Shown one piece after another: positions 47,866 to 63,898 of a DNA stretch of 64,000 nucleotides. The position numbers and the translations under genes are program-made. The first letter of the stretch is position 1. Each line of letters starts with the position of its first letter. Location: NCBI GenBank assembly GCA_038888155.1, contig JAWAJB010000002.1:96001-160000 (forward strand). Direction: 5' to 3'. This stretch comes from Desulfurococcaceae archaeon. GTDB taxonomy: Archaea; Thermoproteota; Thermoprotei_A; Sulfolobales; Desulfurococcaceae. Below the pieces are notes generated by a model, which was not told the origin of the DNA, did not search any database, and was given only the letters and a program-made list of their open reading frames with translations.

Positions 47866-48455
47866 CTCGATGTTAATATTAACCCTTTAATAATTTAGGT
47901 TCTTTTGCAAAATGTTCCACCGCTCATCAGCTGGTTGCTAAGATCTAACCTTGATGGCTGCCTATGTTCATTTATAGCTGTTTCTCACTTATAGCATGGT
48001 CACTGCTTAAAAGCTCCTTGCACCCATTTCTGCAATATTTAACTCGGGATGGATAGTGGGATAGATTGAATTGAAAACAAAGCCTTTTAATCTTAACATT
48101 AAGAGAAGTCTAGATCGAGCTAGAACTCGTCGATACATGTTATTGATTTGATCATCTAGTTCGCACACCATTTTCTTGTGTAAAGTATTCGGTTTAATAG
48201 GGAACATCAACGTCTTCCCATCATGTTCTATCAAACTGCCCCTTCGTCAGTCCTACTTATGTTGATCTCAGTTATCAACTTACCAAATCAGATACCAGCA
48301 TTAAAGAATTCCTTTTTCAGCTATCTTACTTCGAACGAATATTTCGACTCTTAGTTCAATATATATTTTGAGAAAAACCAGGACAGTTTAGGTGTTCTTT
48401 ATAAGTTTTTAAATTTTACTATATAATAAGAATAGCGAGGTGTGAGGATGAACTC

Positions 48456-49454
48456 TTGTTTCACAGCTTAGACGGCAGGCATGTTCTTGTGAGAGCGCCA
48501 GCATCTATAGCCAATATAGGTCCAGGGTTTGACATCCTCGCAATGGCTATAAAAGGCCTTTATGATGAAGTGCTAGTTTCGATCAAATCGGGTTCGGGGA
48601 TTATAACAGTTACATCACAGGGGTTTAATGTTCCATCGGGGAAAGATAATGTTGCCTATGCGGTAGCTAACGAGTTTATTTCGAGATATAACATAAAGGA
48701 TGTTGACACATACATTGAGGTTCGCAAGGGGATCCCGACGTCCTGCGGACTGGGTAGCTCGGGAGCAACTTCTGCAGCGGTTGCATATGCTCTCTCCAAG
48801 GTATTCTCGTTGAATTTAAGAGACGATGAACTCTTAGATCTTGCTAGTGTAGGAGAATTTCACGTTTCCGGCTCTAAACACTATGACAACGTCGCAGCAA
48901 GTTTGTACGGCGGGTTAACTATTGTAGAACCTACTACTAGGAATGTCTTTAAATATGTGCCAACAACTCCTATAAATATTGCTGTTATTATCCCCTCAGT
49001 AGTTGAGCTACAAGGCATTAAAAAGACTAAGTATTCGCGTTCACTTCTTCCACAGCAAATAGGGCTTGACACACATGTTAGGCAGACATCGGCCATTGCT
49101 TTGCTAATATATGCCCTTTTCACTAACAACGTAGAGCTACTTGGAAAGGCTGTGTCCGTGGACTACATTGCAGAGCCGCACAGGTCTAAAATTATCCCAT
49201 ACTACTCAGAATTAAAGGATCTGGCCCTACAGGGCGGGGCACTGGGCTTTAATATATCTGGTGCGGGGCCTGCAGTATTTACTATACACAGAAATATGGA
49301 TGATGCTAAGAGGGCAGCTAGCCGACTTGCAAAGTTCCTTGAATTGAAAGGAGTAAAAGCGTATGCGTATACGACAACAGTATCTTCATCTGGTGCAGAG
49401 CTACTTGCTCGAGAACTCAATAGAGCCGAGAACTTAGACACTCTTTTCCAATAA
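48456..49454 (+). CDS. thrB: Homoserine kinase
   Basis: APASIANIGPGFD, GLGSSGA, HYDNVA, ISGAGP. Confidence 0.95.
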   Translation: MFHSLDGRHVLVRAPASIANIGPGFDILAMAIKGLYDEVLVSIKSGSGIITVTSQGFNVPSGKDNVAYAVANEFISRYNIKDVDTYIEVRKGIPTSCGLGSSGATSAAVAYALSKVFSLNLRDDELLDLASVGEFHVSGSKHYDNVAASLYGGLTIVEPTTRNVFKYVPTTPINIAVIIPSVVELQGIKKTKYSRSLLPQQIGLDTHVRQTSAIALLIYALFTNNVELLGKAVSVDYIAEPHRSKIIPYYSELKDLALQGGALGFNISGAGPAVFTIHRNMDDAKRAASRLAKFLELKGVKAYAYTTTVSSSGAELLARELNRAENLDTLFQ

Positions 49455-49503: not shown

Positions 49504-50727
49504 CTATGCACTGATTTTTTCAGGGCTAAGAATTTTAAACACAGCATCAGGATCTTTAAGCACGTGTCCAGTCCCAACCAGCACAACTGTTTCGCTTTTA
49601 GTTAATATTCGATCTTCAAGGGATTTAATATACCCGGCGAGAGTAGTCGCGCTTGCAGGTTCAACTCCAACACCTTCCGTAACTGCAAGTTTCTTCATGG
49701 CGTCTTTTATTTCACTATCGGAGACTGATATAAATGATCCGCCCGACTCGTTAACCGCATTCAATGCTTTAGGCCAATTAACCGGCTTGCCTATTCTAAT
49801 TGCTGAAGCAATTGTTCTTGGAACAGAGACAGGCAATAAACTACTCGATTTGCTTCTCCACGTTAGTACTAAAGGAGAAGCGCCCTCCGCCTGAACACCA
49901 ATCATTCTTGGAACAGATTCTATTATACCGTTCTCGTGGAGTTCTTTGAAACCTTTCCATACTGCATAAATGTTACCCGCGTTTCCAACGGGGACAAATA
50001 CTGCATCAGGTGATTTGCCGAGTTCTTCCACGATTTCGTACGCTATTGTTTTTTGACCTTCAAGTCTCCATGGATTGTATGAATTTAGGGGATATAGATC
50101 TCTCCGTCCCTTTGTTACAACTAATTCTAAAACATTATCTAGCGCCTCATCAAATAATCCGTCGACTTCAACAACCTCGGCACCGTAAAGCATTGCTTGG
50201 GCCAATTTACCGATCGCCACGGACCCCTTCGGTAAGACCACAACGCATCTCAACCCGGCCCTCGCAGCGTATGCTGCGGCCGAAGCCGCGGTGTTTCCCG
50301 TGCTAGCGACTATTACTCCTTTAACTTCAATATGCCTTGCTATTGTAATGGCAACTGTCATCCCCCTATCTTTGAAGCTCCCCGTCGGATTTGAGCCTTC
50401 AAACTTCAAGTAAACTTTGTTATTTCCTGCTTTAGTAATAGGGATTAGCGGAGTGCCGCCCTCGCACAGAGTAACCGGATCGATCGAGTCACTAAGTGGC
50501 AGAAGCTCTCTATATCTCCATACGCAAAATTTTCGTTTTCTGAGGTCTTCCCAGCGAATCAACAGTCTCTCTATGGTGAGAACTTCAAGTGGACGTTTAC
50601 ACTTGGGACAGAAGAATAGCCATGGATCTGGAGGATAGATCGAGTTACAATATATGCATTTTAGCTTCACACCTGGTTTAAATAGGATGACATTTGAATG
50701 CTTATTTATGTTTCCAAAATAATACAC
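49504..50727 (-). CDS. thrC: Threonine synthase
   Basis: NPTGSFKDRG with PLP lysine, ASTGNT, PVGNAGN, TGHVLKD; real start probably later. Confidence 0.93.
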   Translation of the reverse strand: MYYFGNINKHSNVILFKPGVKLKCIYCNSIYPPDPWLFFCPKCKRPLEVLTIERLLIRWEDLRKRKFCVWRYRELLPLSDSIDPVTLCEGGTPLIPITKAGNNKVYLKFEGSNPTGSFKDRGMTVAITIARHIEVKGVIVASTGNTAASAAAYAARAGLRCVVVLPKGSVAIGKLAQAMLYGAEVVEVDGLFDEALDNVLELVVTKGRRDLYPLNSYNPWRLEGQKTIAYEIVEELGKSPDAVFVPVGNAGNIYAVWKGFKELHENGIIESVPRMIGVQAEGASPLVLTWRSKSSSLLPVSVPRTIASAIRIGKPVNWPKALNAVNESGGSFISVSDSEIKDAMKKLAVTEGVGVEPASATTLAGYIKSLEDRILTKSETVVLVGTGHVLKDPDAVFKILSPEKISA

Positions 50728-50983
50728 CTCGTGCCAAATTACTAAACTGCAAAGGTTAATAAGTTTTTATTTGCTTTCCTGACCAAGCGAATCCTCTAAT
50801 CTTAGCTATTACATATAAAGCAAATCGAGCGACATTCAATACTGTTTGTTAGGATACCTATCAAAACCAGCTTTCCTTCCCAATAAGTCATTTTTTGATT
50901 TATTCCTCGCGGATTTCTAGTGAGGAACGATTTCTTTTACTTTTATCATATCCACGCATTTCCCTGCGACAGGAGCTAGGACA

Positions 50984-57600: not shown

Positions 57601-58299
57601 TTACAACGTTGTAACTAATATGGTAGCAACCGAGCCTACAATGAGCAAAAACGTATATACAGAGTTTTTATTTAATTTTAATGGAGTTTTTACGCCTGTC
57701 TTGAGCCTCCAGTAACAGTACTCATCAATGAAACGACCTATTTCAATCATGCTAGCGACAGCGGGAGGAATCCTCTTAGTTACCTGCTCCCCCTTAAGGC
57801 TTCCTACACTAAGCGAATCCATGAAGTTTTTCAAGCCATATGGTACCAATCTCCAAAGTAAAAGAGGAAAAACGCAAGAACGCTTAGACCTTAGAAAGTA
57901 CAGCAAGTTATGAATTTCTATAGGCGAAATAGTTGCAAATATAAATATTAAGGAAAGCGAGAACCCAATTGCACGACCGGCAATTTCAAGTATCTGCAGC
58001 GTTTCCATGTAATAGAGTCCTGTAAATGAGAGGATATATGCTGAAATCGATAGATACAATCCAGCCAAAGAGGAAAGTATAGTTGACGCCAAAATCCACT
58101 CAGGGTGGGGGCTGAGAAGCCCGAGCGGTATAATTATAAACGACATTAAATAGGCCCGCTCCGGAATAGTCATCATCAACAGCAAAACAACTGAGACGAA
58201 TATTATCTTAGATAAGTAGTGAGCTTTTCTATAACCTTCGTCTCCAAACAGGAAAAAGGATTTATATACAATTGAAACAAGCCATCCTATGAAGCCCAT
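57601..58299 (-). CDS. ECF transporter transmembrane T component (divergent)
   Basis: Hydrophobic protein downstream of the ECF ATPase and S component. Confidence 0.6.
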   Translation of the reverse strand: MGFIGWLVSIVYKSFFLFGDEGYRKAHYLSKIIFVSVVLLLMMTIPERAYLMSFIIIPLGLLSPHPEWILASTILSSLAGLYLSISAYILSFTGLYYMETLQILEIAGRAIGFSLSLIFIFATISPIEIHNLLYFLRSKRSCVFPLLLWRLVPYGLKNFMDSLSVGSLKGEQVTKRIPPAVASMIEIGRFIDEYCYWRLKTGVKTPLKLNKNSVYTFLLIVGSVATILVTTL

Positions 58300-58311
58300 G
58301 CTAAACCACCT

Positions 58312-59631
58312 CTATGTGGACAATTTAATCAAATAATCTACATAGCTCATGATCCTATCATCGTGAGAGGCAACCACAACTGTTTTTTTCTCCGAAACGA
58401 GGTCAAATAGAGCGTGTAAGACCTCCTTACAATTATCATAGTCTAGACCTCCTGTCGGTTCATCTATGAAATACCCCTCAAACCCCGCAAGATAAGCTGA
58501 AGCTATTGCGAGCCTTCTTCTCTCGCCGCTACTAAGCTTCGCCAAAGGTTTATCTAAAACTTTATTTAGATTAAACCTATCAGTTATATCGCGAACAGAG
58601 TTTTCGTTCCCCCTAGCTGAAGCAAGTAGTTCCTCTCTTGGAGTTGGCATGGTGAAGTAAAGTAGTGGATTTTCAGGTATGTATATAGAGCTCCCCCTTC
58701 TCGTTATTCGTCCTCTGGAAGGCTTTAAGGCGCCAGCTGCAAGTTTTAAAATAGTTGATTTACCAGACCCATTAGGTCCCGTAATGCATGTGAAGGTGCC
58801 CTTATTGAAGGATCCGCTAAAATTTTTGAGTACGAAACTACCGCCGGGATACTTAAACCAGACATTTTCAAATTGAACGAATAAATCGCCGCTAACGCGA
58901 GAGGCTCTCTTTTCCGAAACACCCAAATTTTTTATAACTTCCTGAGTCCACTTACCATAGTAGACCAGCCTCCCGTCTTCTAGGTAAATTAAAGTTGGTT
59001 GAAGAGGCTCCCAGAAACTTGGGTTATGATCTACTGCGAGAATGCTAACTCCGAGATTCAGCGCTTTTTTAGCGAACAATATTACTTCATTTCTTGCCTC
59101 ACGATCTAAATATACCGTTGGCTCATCGAGGATCATTAGTTTTGTGTTAACTAATACAGACTCGGACCACAAAACTCTTTGGATCTCGCCCGCACTTAAA
59201 GTATAAGTCAACCTTCCCAGGAGTCTCTCTACGTCGAACGGAATTATGTTCATATTTGTGCAATTTACACCAGCCAGAGAGAGAAACTGGCATATTTCTG
59301 CATACACGGTGTGTCCTATGAATGCGTACCAGGGTTCTTGGGGAATATATGCCATTGTGCGAAAGACCTCTTCGGCATTCATGCTTTCTATATCCCTACC
59401 ACCCAGGAGGATTTTCCCGTCTATGAATCCGCCCGCAGCTTTAAGCGTCCCAGTTATGGCCCTAACTAATGTTGTCTTTCCGCTACCTGATCTACCAGAT
59501 ATCACTAATATTTCACCTTCGTCTATCTTGAAGCTTATATCACGTAGTTGAAAGCCGTCCTTGTAGCCACAGCAATTTATTTTGGATTCTAGTAGGCTCA
59601 AAGAATCAACACCATTAATATTAGTTGACAT
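58312..59631 (-). CDS. ECF transporter fused double ATPase
   Basis: Two Walker A motifs (GRSGSGKT, GPNGSGKS), LSAGE/LSSGE, two DEPT. Confidence 0.9.
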   Translation of the reverse strand: MSTNINGVDSLSLLESKINCCGYKDGFQLRDISFKIDEGEILVISGRSGSGKTTLVRAITGTLKAAGGFIDGKILLGGRDIESMNAEEVFRTMAYIPQEPWYAFIGHTVYAEICQFLSLAGVNCTNMNIIPFDVERLLGRLTYTLSAGEIQRVLWSESVLVNTKLMILDEPTVYLDREARNEVILFAKKALNLGVSILAVDHNPSFWEPLQPTLIYLEDGRLVYYGKWTQEVIKNLGVSEKRASRVSGDLFVQFENVWFKYPGGSFVLKNFSGSFNKGTFTCITGPNGSGKSTILKLAAGALKPSRGRITRRGSSIYIPENPLLYFTMPTPREELLASARGNENSVRDITDRFNLNKVLDKPLAKLSSGERRRLAIASAYLAGFEGYFIDEPTGGLDYDNCKEVLHALFDLVSEKKTVVVASHDDRIMSYVDYLIKLST

Positions 59632-59671: not shown

Positions 59672-60418
59672 CTACTTAAAGTAGCCGGCCTTTCTTAGCC
59701 AAGCAGCTAACGGCAGAGATATTGAAATCCCCGCTACTAGCTGTCCAATGTTTACGGGAACCTCGATTAGAGCTCCAATAGGATCTCTTCCCGTTAGCGG
59801 GTTGCTTACAAAGTATTCATACATGAAGTAGCCTAACACCATTATTATTCCCGCTGTAAATAATGAAATGACTTCGCCCGCTGTTATGTTTTTCTTTGTA
59901 AGCATTAACATGATAAGAGCACCTAGAAATATACCAACAGTAACCCAAATAGCTATAGAGATCTCTAAATATGGCTGATCAAAAGTGAAAGTTAACCACT
60001 GAGGCGGACCGATGTATATGCCGCCTGACCATAAAACTGTAGACACTGTTAAAAAGGCAGCAGTTGATGCTCCACCTGCAATAAGGGCCTGCCAAAAACC
60101 GTGAAGCCCCCTTAACTTCTTCACCAACAGCCCAGCAATATAGCCCTCAATGAATTTTATAATTAGTGTGCCAGGCGCAAATACTGCATAACCTGTTGAT
60201 AGGTCTGCAAGCGCGGCTCCTATGCCTCCGGCTATGCCTGCGACTAATGGTGAAGATACTAGGGCTGCAAGGTATATTATTGCCTCCCCAACGTTGAAAT
60301 ATCCACCCGTAACTGGTTGGTATATCTGTAGAACGATTGTGGCAACATAAACAAGTACTGTAAAAACTACTAATTCAATGGTGTTCGTTCTTACGAGCGG
60401 CATGGGGAGTCTCCACAC
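59672..60418 (-). CDS. ECF transporter S component (HmpT/PdxU2-like N-terminal motif)
   Basis: GGYFNVGE...AGGIGAALADL..GYAVFAPGTLIIK...EG; EVPVNIGQ. Confidence 0.8.
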   Translation of the reverse strand: MWRLPMPLVRTNTIELVVFTVLVYVATIVLQIYQPVTGGYFNVGEAIIYLAALVSSPLVAGIAGGIGAALADLSTGYAVFAPGTLIIKFIEGYIAGLLVKKLRGLHGFWQALIAGGASTAAFLTVSTVLWSGGIYIGPPQWLTFTFDQPYLEISIAIWVTVGIFLGALIMLMLTKKNITAGEVISLFTAGIIMVLGYFMYEYFVSNPLTGRDPIGALIEVPVNIGQLVAGISISLPLAAWLRKAGYFK

Positions 60419-60437
60419 CTTTATTTTGTATTTATAC

Positions 60438-60459
60438 TCTTAAAGTTTATCCTTTAAGA
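60438..60459. promoter_or_regulatory. Inverted repeat overlapping the ECF operon promoter
   Basis: tcttaaag-N6-ctttaaga, perfect 8-bp arms, 20-41 nt upstream of the S-component start. Confidence 0.5.
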
Positions 60460-60481
60460 AAATCTTTCAATATAATGTAAC

Positions 60482-61792
60482 TTATGGAAGATAATACCTT
60501 TTTACGTCCCCTTCTTGAACAGCCCTAATATAGCCCCTATCCGTTAGCTCTTTTAGGTGTTGATATACAGCCTGTGGCGTTATATTCAAGTCCAGATTTC
60601 TCCAAATCTCATAACCAGTTAATCCCTTGTGCGTTTCAAGGACCCCAAGTATAAGCCTCTTTGTAGCACCAATAAATGGCTGTGTAAATCTCCTGCGCAA
60701 GGGTCTAGTGTAACCAGAAGCAGATTTTAGGCCGTGGCTAAAAAGCACTATAACAGAGTCTTCGAGCTCCGTTTTTAAATAGCCTGCAACGACAACAGCA
60801 GATGAAATCTCAGTGAATAACCCTTCCTGTAGTGCAAGAATCTTGGCTGCTCGTATCGTCTCTCGTGATGATACAACAACTAGATCTCCGTGTTTTCTGA
60901 GTATATCGATGACAGAGTTGAATATTGGTGGAGCGTAATACCTGAGCCCTGGATAAGGTTCCTCCATACACTTCTTTGAAATTCCTAAAAAGGAAGCATA
61001 CTTGGGGTTTCCACAATGCTCCACGCCAATAATTTCAGGCACTTTGTTTATGAATCCTCCCTCTAATAGCTCTTTGAATCCGTAGTGAAGAGCTAGAAAC
61101 GTTAAGCCGCTTCCGATTGGAACATATATTCTCCGAGGTACGGAACCGAGTTGCATGTAAAGTTCATACGAAAGTGTTTTCAACCCTTCCATGGACAGAG
61201 CGTTGTGTGTACTCGAGGCGTTATACGCTTTTACTCTACTAGAATATCCGTCAACTTCTTTTAAGAGAGCATCAATGCCTTTATCCTCTATTACAAGCTT
61301 AGCGCCGTAAGTTTTTATTAGAAAGATCTTCTCCTTTTCAATCCACGATGGGGCATATATGCTTGCCTTTAGACCAGCCCTAGTAGCGTATGCAGCTACG
61401 CTAACACCCATATTTCCGTCACTAACTGCGATAACTCTCTTATAGCCTTCTGAGCTCGCGTGACTAACAACTAAGCTAGCAGCTCTATCCCTAATACTAC
61501 CAGTCGGGTTACATCCCTCATTCTTAAAATATACGTTTTTTCCTTTTGCTATCCTCATCGACCTTAACAGAGGAGTATTTCCTTCTCCAAGCGAGATCTT
61601 TACTTTCAAGGGTGGAAGCATGTTGCTGTATCTCCAAATTCCGGGCAACGAGGAGGATTCTTTGAATGTTTTAATATAATTAGCTTTTACAAGTCCCCCG
61701 CAATAAGGACAGATTAGTTTTGGGGCGTTCAACAATTCGTTGCAATTACTACATTTAAATAATGGCATTGAAGCATTCATAGTACCTTGCAT
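60482..61792 (-). CDS. Threonine-synthase-fold protein lacking the PLP lysine, with C-terminal winged HTH
   Basis: NPTGSIRDR (AGG at 61490-61492) versus NPTGSFKDR in thrC; C-terminal GLTGYEIW...ITPQAVYQHLKELTDRGYI. Confidence 0.85.
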   Translation of the reverse strand: MQGTMNASMPLFKCSNCNELLNAPKLICPYCGGLVKANYIKTFKESSSLPGIWRYSNMLPPLKVKISLGEGNTPLLRSMRIAKGKNVYFKNEGCNPTGSIRDRAASLVVSHASSEGYKRVIAVSDGNMGVSVAAYATRAGLKASIYAPSWIEKEKIFLIKTYGAKLVIEDKGIDALLKEVDGYSSRVKAYNASSTHNALSMEGLKTLSYELYMQLGSVPRRIYVPIGSGLTFLALHYGFKELLEGGFINKVPEIIGVEHCGNPKYASFLGISKKCMEEPYPGLRYYAPPIFNSVIDILRKHGDLVVVSSRETIRAAKILALQEGLFTEISSAVVVAGYLKTELEDSVIVLFSHGLKSASGYTRPLRRRFTQPFIGATKRLILGVLETHKGLTGYEIWRNLDLNITPQAVYQHLKELTDRGYIRAVQEGDVKRYYLP

Positions 61793-61892: not shown

Positions 61893-62381
61893 TCACTGAG
61901 TGAACTCGTGGTTAATCCCCTCAAGTGGTAAAGTATTTAAACCATATTTCTTAATTCTCGAAACAAGAGACCTTACAGTCTTAGATATCTCTTTTATGCT
62001 GGCCAGTTCATCTATTTCAAACCAAGCTACATCAGCAGCATCTCCACCTGGCTTAAGCTCTCCGCGAACTGTGTCGGGGTTAAATAATATATCCACTATG
62101 AGGTAATGATACAACACTCGCTTAGATTGATCGTAAACAACGTTGTTCAACACCCATAGTATACCTAGCGGGTCTGCATCTAGTCCAGTTTCTTCTTTGA
62201 GCTCTCGCCTGGCAGCCTCCTCTAGTCTCTCCCCAGCTTCAATGACACCTCCGGGTAGAGACCATCTTCCCAGCCCGGGAGGGTGTCCGCGCTTAACTAA
62301 AAGGATCTTATTTTTATTGACTAATACTGCAGCGACAGAAGCTATTGCGTACCTTGGGTACACTCTCTCCAAAAAGATCAC
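61893..62381 (-). CDS. NUDIX hydrolase
   Basis: Nudix box GGVIEAGERLEEAARRELKEETG. Confidence 0.93.
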   Translation of the reverse strand: MIFLERVYPRYAIASVAAVLVNKNKILLVKRGHPPGLGRWSLPGGVIEAGERLEEAARRELKEETGLDADPLGILWVLNNVVYDQSKRVLYHYLIVDILFNPDTVRGELKPGGDAADVAWFEIDELASIKEISKTVRSLVSRIKKYGLNTLPLEGINHEFTQ

Positions 62382-62460
62382 CTTTATATCATGTTTGAAT
62401 AAGTTGAGGAACTATAAATAAGCATGCTTACATGCTTCTCTTGAGGGGTCATCATTTGGG

Positions 62461-63198
62461 GTGATTTTCATGGAGTACAAACCTAAAGTATTGATTATAC
62501 ACAGCTCGCCAAGAAGGTATGGTGCCTCTTCCCAGCTTGCAGAAATTGCCGGGATAGGCGTAAATGATGCAGGCGGTTTAGTAGAGAGAATTTTCCTCTA
62601 CGACTATAACATAAAGCCCTGCATAGGATGCGTCTCGGATGGGATAGCTTATTGTAGGTTTCCTTGTATAATTCGCGATGATGACTTTAACTACGTTGCA
62701 AATAAGATAATGGAAGCTGATGGCTTAATAATAGCTACACCAGTTTACTGGTATGCTCCTAGCGGTATTCTGAAGAACGTGCTCGATAGGTTAACAAGTA
62801 TGGAGAACATGATCTTTCACAAGAGTAAGAGCCTGTTAGAAGGGAAAGTGGCTGGATTCATTGCAACAGGTCTCGATAGCGGAGTAATGACATCGATAGC
62901 ATACTTGATGGCTGTATTGAATAGTATGGGTGTTATCATACCTCCATGGAGTATGGCATACTCGCACGTCGAGGAAATTGTCAAAGATGAGAATGCACTT
63001 AGAGATGCTTACAATGTGGGTTACTTAGTTACCGAGGCTTTGAAAGCGTTGAAAGCTTACGATAAACCCTTGGGTTATAAGCCGGACATCGAAGTTAAGA
63101 AGCTCACGGAAACTCTCAAGAACTATAGTGTAACGAAATCGTCTGAGAGGGAAATAAGGTTAAAGTTGCTTAACTCTCTGCTCGATCAGAACCGCTGA
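62461..63198 (+). CDS. Flavodoxin-fold iron-sulfur flavoprotein (Isf-like)
   Basis: SSPRR, PCIGC...C...C, ATPVYW. Confidence 0.88.
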   Translation: MIFMEYKPKVLIIHSSPRRYGASSQLAEIAGIGVNDAGGLVERIFLYDYNIKPCIGCVSDGIAYCRFPCIIRDDDFNYVANKIMEADGLIIATPVYWYAPSGILKNVLDRLTSMENMIFHKSKSLLEGKVAGFIATGLDSGVMTSIAYLMAVLNSMGVIIPPWSMAYSHVEEIVKDENALRDAYNVGYLVTEALKALKAYDKPLGYKPDIEVKKLTETLKNYSVTKSSEREIRLKLLNSLLDQNR

Positions 63199-63898
63199 GA
63201 CACACCATTTTCCTTAGGTCGTTGAATATGCTGGTGCTACTCCATGATCCCACGCGCTGAGCAATTTTTAAGACTTTTACATCGTCTAAACCGCGCTCCA
63301 TTAGGGCACTAGTTAGTTCACTTGGAGTGATCCACTGATCTGGTCCTAAAACAACTATATCTGGCTTTATGTTAACTACAGGCTTAAGGAAGTCCTCTTC
63401 GTCCCCAATAATTGCAGAAGAGACATACCTTACACTTTTCACCACTTCAAGCCTATCGCGTTCGCTTAGAGCTGGTTTTCTTCCCTTGAATTTCTCAAAG
63501 TTCTTATCCCTCGACACAACTACATAAACCTCTCCATGCTGCCAGGCCAGTTGTAATAAGTTTATATGACCGGGATGTAGAAACTCAAAGCTCCCTGCAA
63601 CCAACACTCTCGGTCTTTTAAGCAATTTACTTATAGGTTCCCAATGCACTCCTTTGATGTAGCCCATGATCCTCAGGGAGTCTAGTAGCCCTTCGGCATA
63701 AGCTATACAGGAAAGACTAGTCTCAAGATCCCCCTTCTCATAGTAATACTTGGCATCACTCAAGTATGATTTAGCCAGCTCTATAACCGCTTTTTGCTCC
63801 TTCGGAAGAAAATCCCACGCTGCTTTAGCGATGAAAGCTTCAACGCTATCTATGTAAAGCTTTACTCTCTTCTCTATAGGAATCCCCAAAGCAGACAC
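63170..63898 (-). CDS. ribL: DUF357 fused to FAD synthetase (RibL-type nucleotidyltransferase)
   Basis: YLSDAKYY...YAEGLLD (DUF357) plus GSFEFLHPGH, KPDIVVLGPDQ, SSTSI. Confidence 0.8.
   Translation of the reverse strand: MSALGIPIEKRVKLYIDSVEAFIAKAAWDFLPKEQKAVIELAKSYLSDAKYYYEKGDLETSLSCIAYAEGLLDSLRIMGYIKGVHWEPISKLLKRPRVLVAGSFEFLHPGHINLLQLAWQHGEVYVVVSRDKNFEKFKGRKPALSERDRLEVVKSVRYVSSAIIGDEEDFLKPVVNIKPDIVVLGPDQWITPSELTSALMERGLDDVKVLKIAQRVGSWSSTSIFNDLRKMVCLSGSDRAES

Follow-up and report, generated by a model that had tools for sequence, protein, structure and literature searches.

The 64,000-nucleotide stretch of DNA analyzed here, hereafter the window, spans positions 96,001 to 160,000 of contig JAWAJB010000002.1 from a Desulfurococcaceae archaeon. 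On its reverse strand, a gene at 60482..61792 encodes a protein of 436 amino acids that joins a zinc ribbon, a pseudo-enzyme domain with the threonine synthase (ThrC) fold of enzymes dependent on pyridoxal 5'-phosphate (PLP), a linker, and a C-terminal winged helix-turn-helix (wHTH). The genes of an energy-coupling factor (ECF) importer lie directly downstream on the same strand, and the gap between the two contains a palindrome. Our comparisons suggest that this protein, called the regulator below, is probably a vitamin B6 (PLP)-sensing repressor of genes for B6 uptake and synthesis. The window also holds an intact thrC on the reverse strand (49504-50727), which exceeds the thrC equivalog cut-off (TIGR00260, 296.6 bits versus 167.1), and an open reading frame (ORF) on the forward strand (48456-49454) that exceeds the cut-off for homoserine kinase (NF002288, 269.5 versus 194).

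The enzyme-like part of the regulator is a ThrC-type domain of fold-type II. Pfam PALP covers residues 66-350 (60743..61597) with 207.5 bits, and the AlphaFold2 model, which was built on an alignment of 46 family members (mean predicted local distance difference test, pLDDT, 92.1; predicted template modeling score 0.81), retrieves the threonine synthases 6nmx, 2d1f, 1v7c, and 2zsj as top Foldseek rows, with E-values of about 1e-27 and target-normalized template modeling (TM) scores of 0.81-0.84. The same ThrCs are the closest solved proteins by sequence, at about 30% identity, and none carries an additional C-terminal domain. At the N-terminus, four cysteines (C14, C17, C28, and C31; 61700..61753) form a zinc ribbon whose Cys columns are conserved both in the fused proteins and in the archaeal ThrCs that retain the catalytic lysine, so the ribbon is a ThrC inheritance and did not arise with the regulator. 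Despite this resemblance, the regulator falls below every threonine synthase cut-off in NCBIfam: it scores 97.4 versus 167.1 for TIGR00260 and 394.7 versus 421 for NF004170 (PRK05638, “threonine synthase,” 442 positions), an alignment that spans model positions 2-428 and therefore takes in the wHTH.

The additional C-terminal domain announced in the preliminary description is present in the model. Behind a flexible linker (residues 364-372, 60677..60703; pLDDT below 50), the C-terminal unit (residues 374-436, 60485..60673) is modeled over residues 374-434 as helices 374-387, 393-400, and 406-419 followed by a beta hairpin at 423-434, and this predicted arrangement is that of a winged helix. 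Its recognition helix carries the conserved motif QAVYQHL, and A408, Y410, Q411, H412, and L413 are near-invariant in the family alignment. Pfam finds weak winged-helix matches over residues 379-435, each of them under its own cut-off, the best being F-93_WHD with 22 bits versus 28. Across the family, the matches are of the PadR, F-93, HTH_45, and MarR types; PadR (PF03551) matches 24 of the 46 members at E ≤ 0.001, the window regulator not being among them. A phmmer search of 1.84 billion representatives, with a C-terminal piece of 77 residues as query, returned only 29 matches and was too insensitive to size the family.

The first downstream gene (59672..60418, with an alternative ATG start at 60403) encodes an ECF S component of the PdxU/HmpT type, identified by PF07155 (74.2 bits versus a cut-off of 26.7), and is the only PF07155 gene found in this genome. 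In the PDB, its sequence matches a single entry, the HmpT transporter's S chain (4hzu_S, E 2e-4). The second gene (58312..59631) encodes a fused A-A' ATPase of 439 amino acids with two ABC domains; ABC_tran matches in two stretches (148.4 bits), ECF_ATPase_1 and ECF_ATPase_2 score 153 and 152 bits, both under their cut-offs, and the gene is syntenic in 11 Desulfurococcales-type loci. These matches confirm that the regulator gene is located directly upstream of S and AA genes. The third gene, earlier called ECF T, is a less straightforward case. Its product, a 232-amino-acid membrane protein (57601..58299), has no match in Pfam or NCBIfam and no sequence match in the PDB. Its position in the operon and its fold point to a T component: homologs occupy the same position in 10 loci, and six of the seven best Foldseek rows for its model (pLDDT 85.8) are ECF T/CbiQ chains, although these matches are weak (best E 0.074, TM about 0.5, no row at E ≤ 0.001). 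We therefore regard it as a probable, divergent T component and as the least secure part of the importer.

According to PMC9997740, PdxU and PdxU2/HmpT (COG4720/PF07155) are two of only three characterized prokaryotic B6 transporters, and according to PMC4860826 HmpT, first named for hydroxymethylpyrimidine (HMP), prefers pyridoxamine. The window importer shares with these systems the PF07155 S component and would form a dedicated S-AA'-T operon. It differs from HmpT in that the archaeal S component is longer (about 243-248 versus 166 amino acids), with low similarity (E 2e-4), and from both HmpT and PdxU in that A and A' are fused and T is beyond recognition by sequence. Family membership, together with the link of the regulator to pdxST described below, suggests that the S component imports a B6 vitamer.

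The feature that first set the regulator apart from ThrC is the residue at the Schiff-base position. An arginine codon (AGG, 61490-61492; Arg101) stands in the motif GSIRDR (61484-61501), where the thrC of the window has GSFKDR (50365-50382), exactly as had been proposed. A homolog search scored 8000 candidates, 709 of them at E ≤ 0.001, and among the best 120 clusters 69 have a residue other than Lys at this position (60 Arg, 5 Leu, 2 Phe, 1 Met, and 1 Val), while 51 retain it. The Lys-bearing clusters are 290-409 amino acids long, with the sole exception of P0045 (470 amino acids, with a wHTH). FastTree, run with midpoint rooting on 121 rows (119 of the listed clusters, leaving aside P0001, the window's own, plus two window proteins), separates 68 rows (67 non-Lys and P0045) from 53 rows with an SH-like (Shimodaira-Hasegawa-like) support of 100; the smaller group comprises the 51 Lys rows and the long-branch non-Lys rows P0069 and P0084. 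Such a quick tree demonstrates clustering of the non-Lys sequences and not a proven single origin. Because the loss of Lys is common to the whole fused clade, the arginine is neither a private mutation nor a sequencing error, a possibility that the preliminary description had raised against its own proposal. P0045, the only Lys-bearing member of the fused clade, is nested in an Arg-bearing subclade of Bathyarchaeia, and its Lys is either a reversion or an error.

We compared columns between 51 Lys rows and 64 fused rows, leaving out the window's own copy (P0001), the single exception (P0045), and the long branches (P0069, P0070, P0071, P0084, and P0086). At the Schiff-base column, Lys is present in 51 of 51 rows of the Lys clade, and the fused clade has Arg in 57, Leu in 4, Phe in 2, and Met in 1 of 64. 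Seventy-one columns are conserved to at least 85% in the Lys-bearing ThrCs; in the fused clade, 50 of them are kept, 14 are relaxed, and 7, the Schiff-base column among them, are changed. The kept segments include the S-x-G-N loop, the Gly-rich loop, and the E-x-S-S-A segment, with S124, G126, N127, G227, G229, E328, and S331 among the kept pocket columns; these segments presumably cradle the O3', the phosphate, and the ring nitrogen of PLP, as in fold-type II enzymes in general. The fused clade also has fixed residues of its own (S228 and N197 in 64/64, D125 in 54/64). On these two observations, the pocket is still under selection, as expected for a binding site without catalysis. Two further substitutions, T-to-D in the S-x-G-N loop and R-to-S, were considered as substrate contacts lost relative to bacterial ThrC and were dropped, given that the archaeal Lys clade is variable there too.

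The same columns could be read as signs of a protein that is still an enzyme, or bifunctional like BirA, with another residue compensating for the arginine. The 50 of 71 ThrC columns that are kept, and the “threonine synthase” label attached to many members in databases, speak for such activity. Nevertheless, we consider it extremely unlikely: the Schiff-base lysine is essential for catalysis in fold-type II PLP enzymes, the position is variously Arg, Leu, Phe, Met, or Val across the clade, unlike a catalytic residue, the regulator lies under the threonine synthase cut-offs, and the genome has a separate thrC above the equivalog cut-off.

The 63-nt gap between the regulator and the S gene (60419-60481) contains a single inverted repeat with two 100% complementary 8-nt arms (60438-60445 and 60452-60459) and a 6-nt spacer, in agreement with the earlier reading. 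Across the 2.42-Mb genome, its exact core, TTAAAG-N6-CTTTAA, has three copies, and the two outside this gap are inside ORFs. When the gap was aligned with those of three same-genus genomes, a 34-nt block (60438-60471, reverse strand; positions 30-63 of the aligned gap) proved almost invariant across the four, while the flanks diverge. This block, the predicted operator, combines the inverted repeat with an upstream GAAAG element (60462-60471). All four genomes have this element unchanged, 10-15 nt upstream of the left arm, and it resembles a third half-site; in Bathyarchaeia loci, an extra half-palindrome often follows the main site. Such extra half-sites hint at binding by more than one dimer.

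The preliminary description had placed the repeat over a TATA box. No further promoter-like element is conserved in the aligned gaps of the four genomes; for this reason the TATA element is most likely the right arm, CTTTAAGA, or overlaps it. Alternatively, it may be TATAAATA, immediately downstream, with the ATG at 60403 as the start codon. Under either choice, the operator would overlap the core promoter, in line with that placement.

The gaps between regulator and S gene in other archaea share one palindrome class. The loci behind this comparison come from an alignment-based scan with one genome per species, which identified 583 of 600 candidate stretches as relatives and from which 80 loci were fetched; a single-protein locus scan had returned nothing. 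The Desulfurococcales-type palindrome reads TCTTAAAG-N6-CTTTAWAW and the Bathyarchaeia type TAGTATAGTT-N2-AACTATACTA, with equal half-site spacing and a common AGTT-N2-AACT core. At the S-gene promoter of an Asgard locus (L018), the sequence is ATATTCAAGTT-N2-AACTTGAATAT. Across 47 S-gene upstream regions of 141 bp each, the strict pattern TA[AT]AG-N6-CT[AT]TA is present in 33 (37 sites in 6,627 bp), compared with 11 sites in the remaining 681,242 bp of the same loci, which corresponds to an enrichment of about 350-fold upstream of S genes. A relaxed half-site score gives 10/10 in 33 regions, 9/10 in 7, 8/10 in 3, and 7/10 in 4, so that 40 of 47 have at least 9 of 10 positions; several of the low scores reflect mis-called start codons.

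The same operator class also appears at B6 synthesis genes. In the Heimdallarchaeota loci L039 and L034, TATACAAGTT-N2-AACTTGTATA, with the same AGTT-N2-AACT core, is located between divergent pdxS and regulator genes, and in L055 an operator of the Bathyarchaeia type lies directly before pdxS, its arms identical to those before S genes in related loci. Because S-gene and pdxS promoters carry one operator class, a single regulator-operator pair appears at genes for B6 uptake in some genomes and at genes for B6 synthesis elsewhere. As for the window, the proposal that the ECF operon is the target gains support from the conserved adjacency and the conserved palindrome at S-gene promoters. A regulon beyond the ECF operon in this genome was considered and rejected: a TAAAG-N6-CTTTA site before a fructose-1,6-bisphosphatase gene (C3:9373) does not have the inner TT/AA and is probably due to chance, the other two exact matches are inside ORFs, and the genome's homolog of the AIR-synthase-family (AIRS) neighbors described below has no operator.

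The arrangement of operator and promoter bears on the sign of regulation. In Bathyarchaeia, the operator follows a TTTAAAA-like element and precedes the start codon, and in the window it would lie on the core promoter; these positions fit repression by occlusion. The same targets could be controlled with the opposite sign, either by an apo-form activator like PdxR or by a repressor that the vitamin releases. Bacterial PdxR activates pdxST when PLP is low, and the Desulfurococcales operator coincides with the probable TATA element or immediately precedes it, a position used by some activators in archaea. We consider this unlikely, however, since the operator overlaps the only conserved promoter-like block in the four same-genus genomes and the Bathyarchaeia operator follows the TATA-like element, both of which are positions typical of promoter occlusion.

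The preliminary description had also named thrB and thrC as possible targets, and threonine and O-phosphohomoserine as possible ligands. More generally, the regulator might sense threonine, O-phosphohomoserine, or homoserine, possibly as a PLP external aldimine in the manner of GabR, and regulate threonine metabolism. Its descent from ThrC would suit such a role, and an arginine in place of Lys would keep the aldehyde of PLP available to an amino acid. Some loci also provide a suggestive context: in 7 of the 64 fused loci, all from Bathyarchaeia, the opposite strand upstream of the regulator carries a PALP/ThrC-like gene, either as the first gene (L013, L025, L035, and L046) or the second (L009, L053, and L068), and in L013 it stands beside homoserine dehydrogenase. 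These upstream genes may be a trace of the duplication that founded the regulator family. Within 150 nt upstream of the regulator, on the side of these thrC-like genes, no operator was found; in these loci it is on the S-gene side. In the window, a search allowing up to two mismatches gave seven operator-like matches versus 9.2 expected by chance, none of them upstream of thrC (50728-50983); the nearest to thrB (48180-48197, two mismatches, about 260 nt upstream) is within chance expectation. With no credible site at either promoter, thrB and thrC are not supported as targets; conserved neighbors are B6 genes, and gene neighborhoods lend no support to threonine or O-phosphohomoserine as ligands. 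We thus judge control of threonine metabolism very improbable.

The hosts of the 80 loci include Desulfurococcales, other Thermoprotei, Bathyarchaeia, several Asgard lineages, Methanomethylicia, Nitrososphaeria, and a few bins labeled otherwise. By regulator type, the loci divide into 64 with fused non-Lys proteins of at least 400 amino acids (59 Arg, 3 Leu, 1 Ser, and 1 Val at the Schiff-base position), 1 truncated form, and 15 Lys forms of 317-411 amino acids. ORFs were called with a simple script, and neighbors were labeled by phmmer against the window proteins together with PdxS, PdxT, and AIRS-family proteins from the loci. A PF07155 S gene immediately adjoins the regulator in 47 of the 64 fused loci, and pdxS is present within three genes in three others (L034, L039, and L055). 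Neither the S-gene nor the pdxST pattern occurs beside any of the 15 Lys-bearing ThrCs. Pfam analysis of 131 neighbors from 29 loci confirmed the PF07155 label of the S genes and recognized SOR_SNZ and SNO (PdxS and PdxT) divergently upstream of the regulator in L034 and L039 and directly downstream of it in L055.

A further recurrent neighbor is a gene of about 335 codons with AIRS and AIRS_C domains, which follows the S gene in Bathyarchaeia and pdxT in L055. Of the 64 fused loci, 29 have this gene within three genes of the regulator (L020:9987-10994, L055:11039-12046, and 27 others), and it falls under the equivalog cut-offs of thiL (97 versus 184 bits), hypE (109 versus 252), and selD; the name given in the ESM Atlas is the generic “AIR synthase family protein.” The window genome has a homolog with 33% identity (L084:2330-3313, on C3), which lies in a TatD/zinc-ribbon operon. 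According to PMC9997740, alternative B6 kinases are still to be found, and we propose the AIRS-family gene as a candidate B6 salvage kinase.

This gene could instead be taken to point towards thiamine, with a regulator that senses HMP or thiamine, an S component that imports hydroxymethylpyrimidine, and an AIRS neighbor that is a ThiL-type kinase. The original naming of HmpT for HMP (PMC4860826) agrees with this, as does the presence of thiL among the top NCBIfam models (97 bits) of the AIRS gene, which lies near the regulator in so many loci. Conversely, the AIRS gene fails every equivalog cut-off, the measured substrate of HmpT in the same source is pyridoxamine, and none of the 131 scanned neighbors is a thiamine biosynthesis gene. 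Moreover, the regulator or its operator is directly at pdxS-pdxT in L034, L039, and L055, in the last of which the AIRS gene comes after pdxT, and a divergent paralog of the regulator is located at pdxST in same-genus genomes. A role in thiamine or HMP sensing is therefore quite unlikely.

This paralog represents a sister subfamily of 371-375 amino acids that adjoins pdxS-pdxT in pdxS-bearing relatives from the same genus and the same order (L085-L088), and in two of its loci (L085:3013-4140 and L087:3204-4319, reverse strand) the order regulator-pdxS-pdxT was read. The sister protein is 27% identical to the window regulator from end to end and has a zinc ribbon, a decayed PALP domain, and a related C-terminal winged helix; it has Ser at the Lys site and changes in both the Asn of the S-x-G-N motif and the Gly loop. 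Of the five loci fetched, four (L085-L088) have a palindrome of another kind, ATTGAACGTTCAAT, near pdxS, and the fifth ends at a contig edge; in L085 and L087 this palindrome is located in the gap between regulator and pdxS. By sequence comparison, ThrC-derived wHTH proteins are thus tied to B6 synthesis a second time.

The distribution of B6 genes offers a further perspective on the window copy. The assembly comprises 2.42 Mb in 134 contigs and is 97.4% complete with 6.4% contamination; 16 same-genus genomes measure 0.9-1.5 Mb, so that this one (G000) is much larger, and several strains or organisms may be mixed in the bin. Within it, pdxS was not detected by PF01680, whose control was positive in 10 of 14 reference genomes, and neither pdxS nor pdxT was detected by tblastn with queries from L039. 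The genome has one PF08543 kinase domain, in a frame of 462 amino acids, which may belong to a ThiD-type enzyme. This gene content fits a B6 auxotroph that would rely on the importer. Among 31 related genomes, five of the same genus have a full-length regulator (G000, G001, G003, G005, and G006) and none of these shows pdxS; a PF07155 gene lies directly downstream of the regulator in G001, G003, and G006. Six same-genus genomes with pdxS (G007, G008, G010, G012, G013, and G014) have no full-length regulator, and each carries the divergent paralog on the same contig as pdxS and close to it. As these genomes are kin, the pattern is descriptive only, and outside the genus both systems can coexist (G022 and G024).

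These observations can be combined into a mechanism. The sensor domain would bind PLP or another B6 vitamer non-covalently, without an internal aldimine; such binding is probable because the Schiff-base lysine is lost while most of the conserved pocket is kept. The flexible linker would couple the sensor to the PadR-like winged helix, and a dimer would probably bind the palindrome TCTTAAAG-N6-CTTTAAGA over the core promoter of the ecfS-ecfAA'-ecfT operon. With ample B6, the liganded protein would occupy the operator and block TBP/TFB, switching the importer off; under B6 shortage, it would leave the DNA. In relatives, the same regulator-operator pair would control pdxS-pdxT instead. We infer the identity of the ligand, dimerization, DNA binding, and the sign of regulation from the comparisons above, the dimer from the palindrome and the dimeric nature of ThrC. 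That the protein is a one-component transcription factor of B6 genes is highly probable, that its effector is a B6 vitamer is likely, and we lean slightly towards the vitamer acting as a co-repressor; taken as a whole, the mechanism is likely to be right in its core. The core idea of the preliminary description, a dead ThrC-type sensor fused to a wHTH that controls the local ECF genes and probably responds to B6, agrees with every comparative test run here.

Several points weigh against this interpretation. Ligand binding, DNA binding, and loss of catalysis are predictions from sequence comparison, as is the substrate of the S component, whose best NCBIfam match reaches 53 bits versus a cut-off of 120 and whose Pfam family, PF07155, has a name that refers to riboflavin. 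Of two HmpT pocket residues that were mapped, one is conserved (Glu41 is kept, His84 is Lys). The PLP-contacting residues of the regulator were assigned by analogy with fold-type II enzymes in general, and the overlap of operator and promoter is likewise deduced from the DNA letters. Some clades have Leu, Phe, or Met in place of Arg, and the sister paralog has lost both the Asn and the Gly-loop motif, which means that the ligand may differ among members. The position of the AIRS gene after the S gene in Bathyarchaeia, with thiamine-phosphate kinase among its closest models, could point to thiamine or HMP. By script, 14 of the 64 fused loci have neither an S gene nor pdxS as a neighbor; among them, the S gene in L005 is one spurious small ORF further on, L044 has the operator with no S ORF called, and the regulator is at a contig end in L040, L045, L070, L071, and L074. 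Finally, the non-detection of pdxS and pdxT comes from a draft genome and is no proof of absence, and the contamination of 6.4% and a size far above that of congeners apply to the same assembly.

Compared with known systems, the regulator shares its fold and N-terminal zinc ribbon with archaeal ThrC (EC 4.2.3.1; TIGR00260, NF004170/PRK05638); unlike ThrC, it has no Schiff-base lysine, carries the additional wHTH, scores under all ThrC cut-offs, and falls in a separate clade. The “threonine synthase” label on the family is therefore probably a misannotation. PadR proteins have an N-terminal wHTH and a C-terminal dimerization helix, whereas in the regulator the wHTH is C-terminal, behind an enzyme-like domain of 350 residues. 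The archaeal regulators ThiR and RbkR follow the same design principle, in which an enzyme domain from a vitamin pathway is reused as the sensor of a wHTH regulator of transport and synthesis genes for that vitamin. They use other enzyme folds and respond to other vitamins, and their sensors derive from the pathway under control; ThrC, by contrast, only uses the cofactor.

The closest functional parallel is the bacterial MocR family (PdxR and GabR), which also joins a winged helix to a sensor derived from a PLP enzyme. MocR proteins have an N-terminal wHTH of the GntR type and a fold-type I, aminotransferase-like domain; in contrast, the archaeal regulator has a C-terminal, PadR-like wHTH and a fold-type II, ThrC-like domain in which the lysine is replaced. 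According to PMC5320631, the PdxR regulon includes pdxST and pdxU, the gene types found beside the archaeal regulator, and the MocR family is reported to be absent from Archaea. By these comparisons, the two are analogous and not homologous, their likeness having arisen by convergence. Control of B6 genes through promoter repeats, as in PdxR, is predicted for the archaeal regulator from the conserved adjacency and the palindrome at S-gene and pdxS promoters.

Our search of the open full-text literature, which did not extend to subscription journals and supplements, brought up neither a ThrC-like wHTH regulator nor a regulator of B6 genes from archaea; one paper on fusion proteins in archaea mentions only a CysH-ThrC fusion (PMC11237513). 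The family is real, conserved, and apparently undescribed, a kind of enzyme-derived, cofactor-sensing transcription factor, and the window copy is a typical member whose most likely role, by comparison with its relatives, is to repress a B6 importer in a host that is probably unable to synthesize the vitamin. Within the reach of the search, no transcriptional regulator of B6 metabolism is known in Archaea, a gap that the family would fill. The broadest form of this reading, an old family of B6-sensing transcription factors built from a dead threonine synthase, extending from Thermoproteota to Asgard, convergent with PdxR and the first B6 regulator in Archaea, with a regulon that marks a B6 importer and an AIRS gene that is perhaps an “alternative B6 kinase,” has in our view an even chance of being correct. 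The family would also be a second, independent case in which the fold of a PLP enzyme was co-opted for cofactor sensing. Its recognition would correct the widespread “threonine synthase” label, a misannotation by which threonine biosynthesis is overpredicted for archaeal genomes, and would mark archaea that import rather than make B6, which would be useful for cultivation and for models of vitamin cross-feeding. The conserved operator and regulon make the hypothesis directly testable.

Besides thrC and the regulator, at least four further PALP/ThrC-like paralogs are present in the genome (C2:243291-244445, C3:128395-129450, C2:221356-222243, and C2:304724-305653), two of which cover positions 2-358 of the PRK05638 model. 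Upstream of the regulator, at 61893-63898 in the window, lie genes for a NUDIX hydrolase, a flavoprotein of the FMN-reductase family, and a protein combining DUF357 with a cytidylyltransferase-like domain, the last possibly an FAD synthetase of the archaeal type. The NUDIX gene is also located upstream of the regulator in a close relative (L006).

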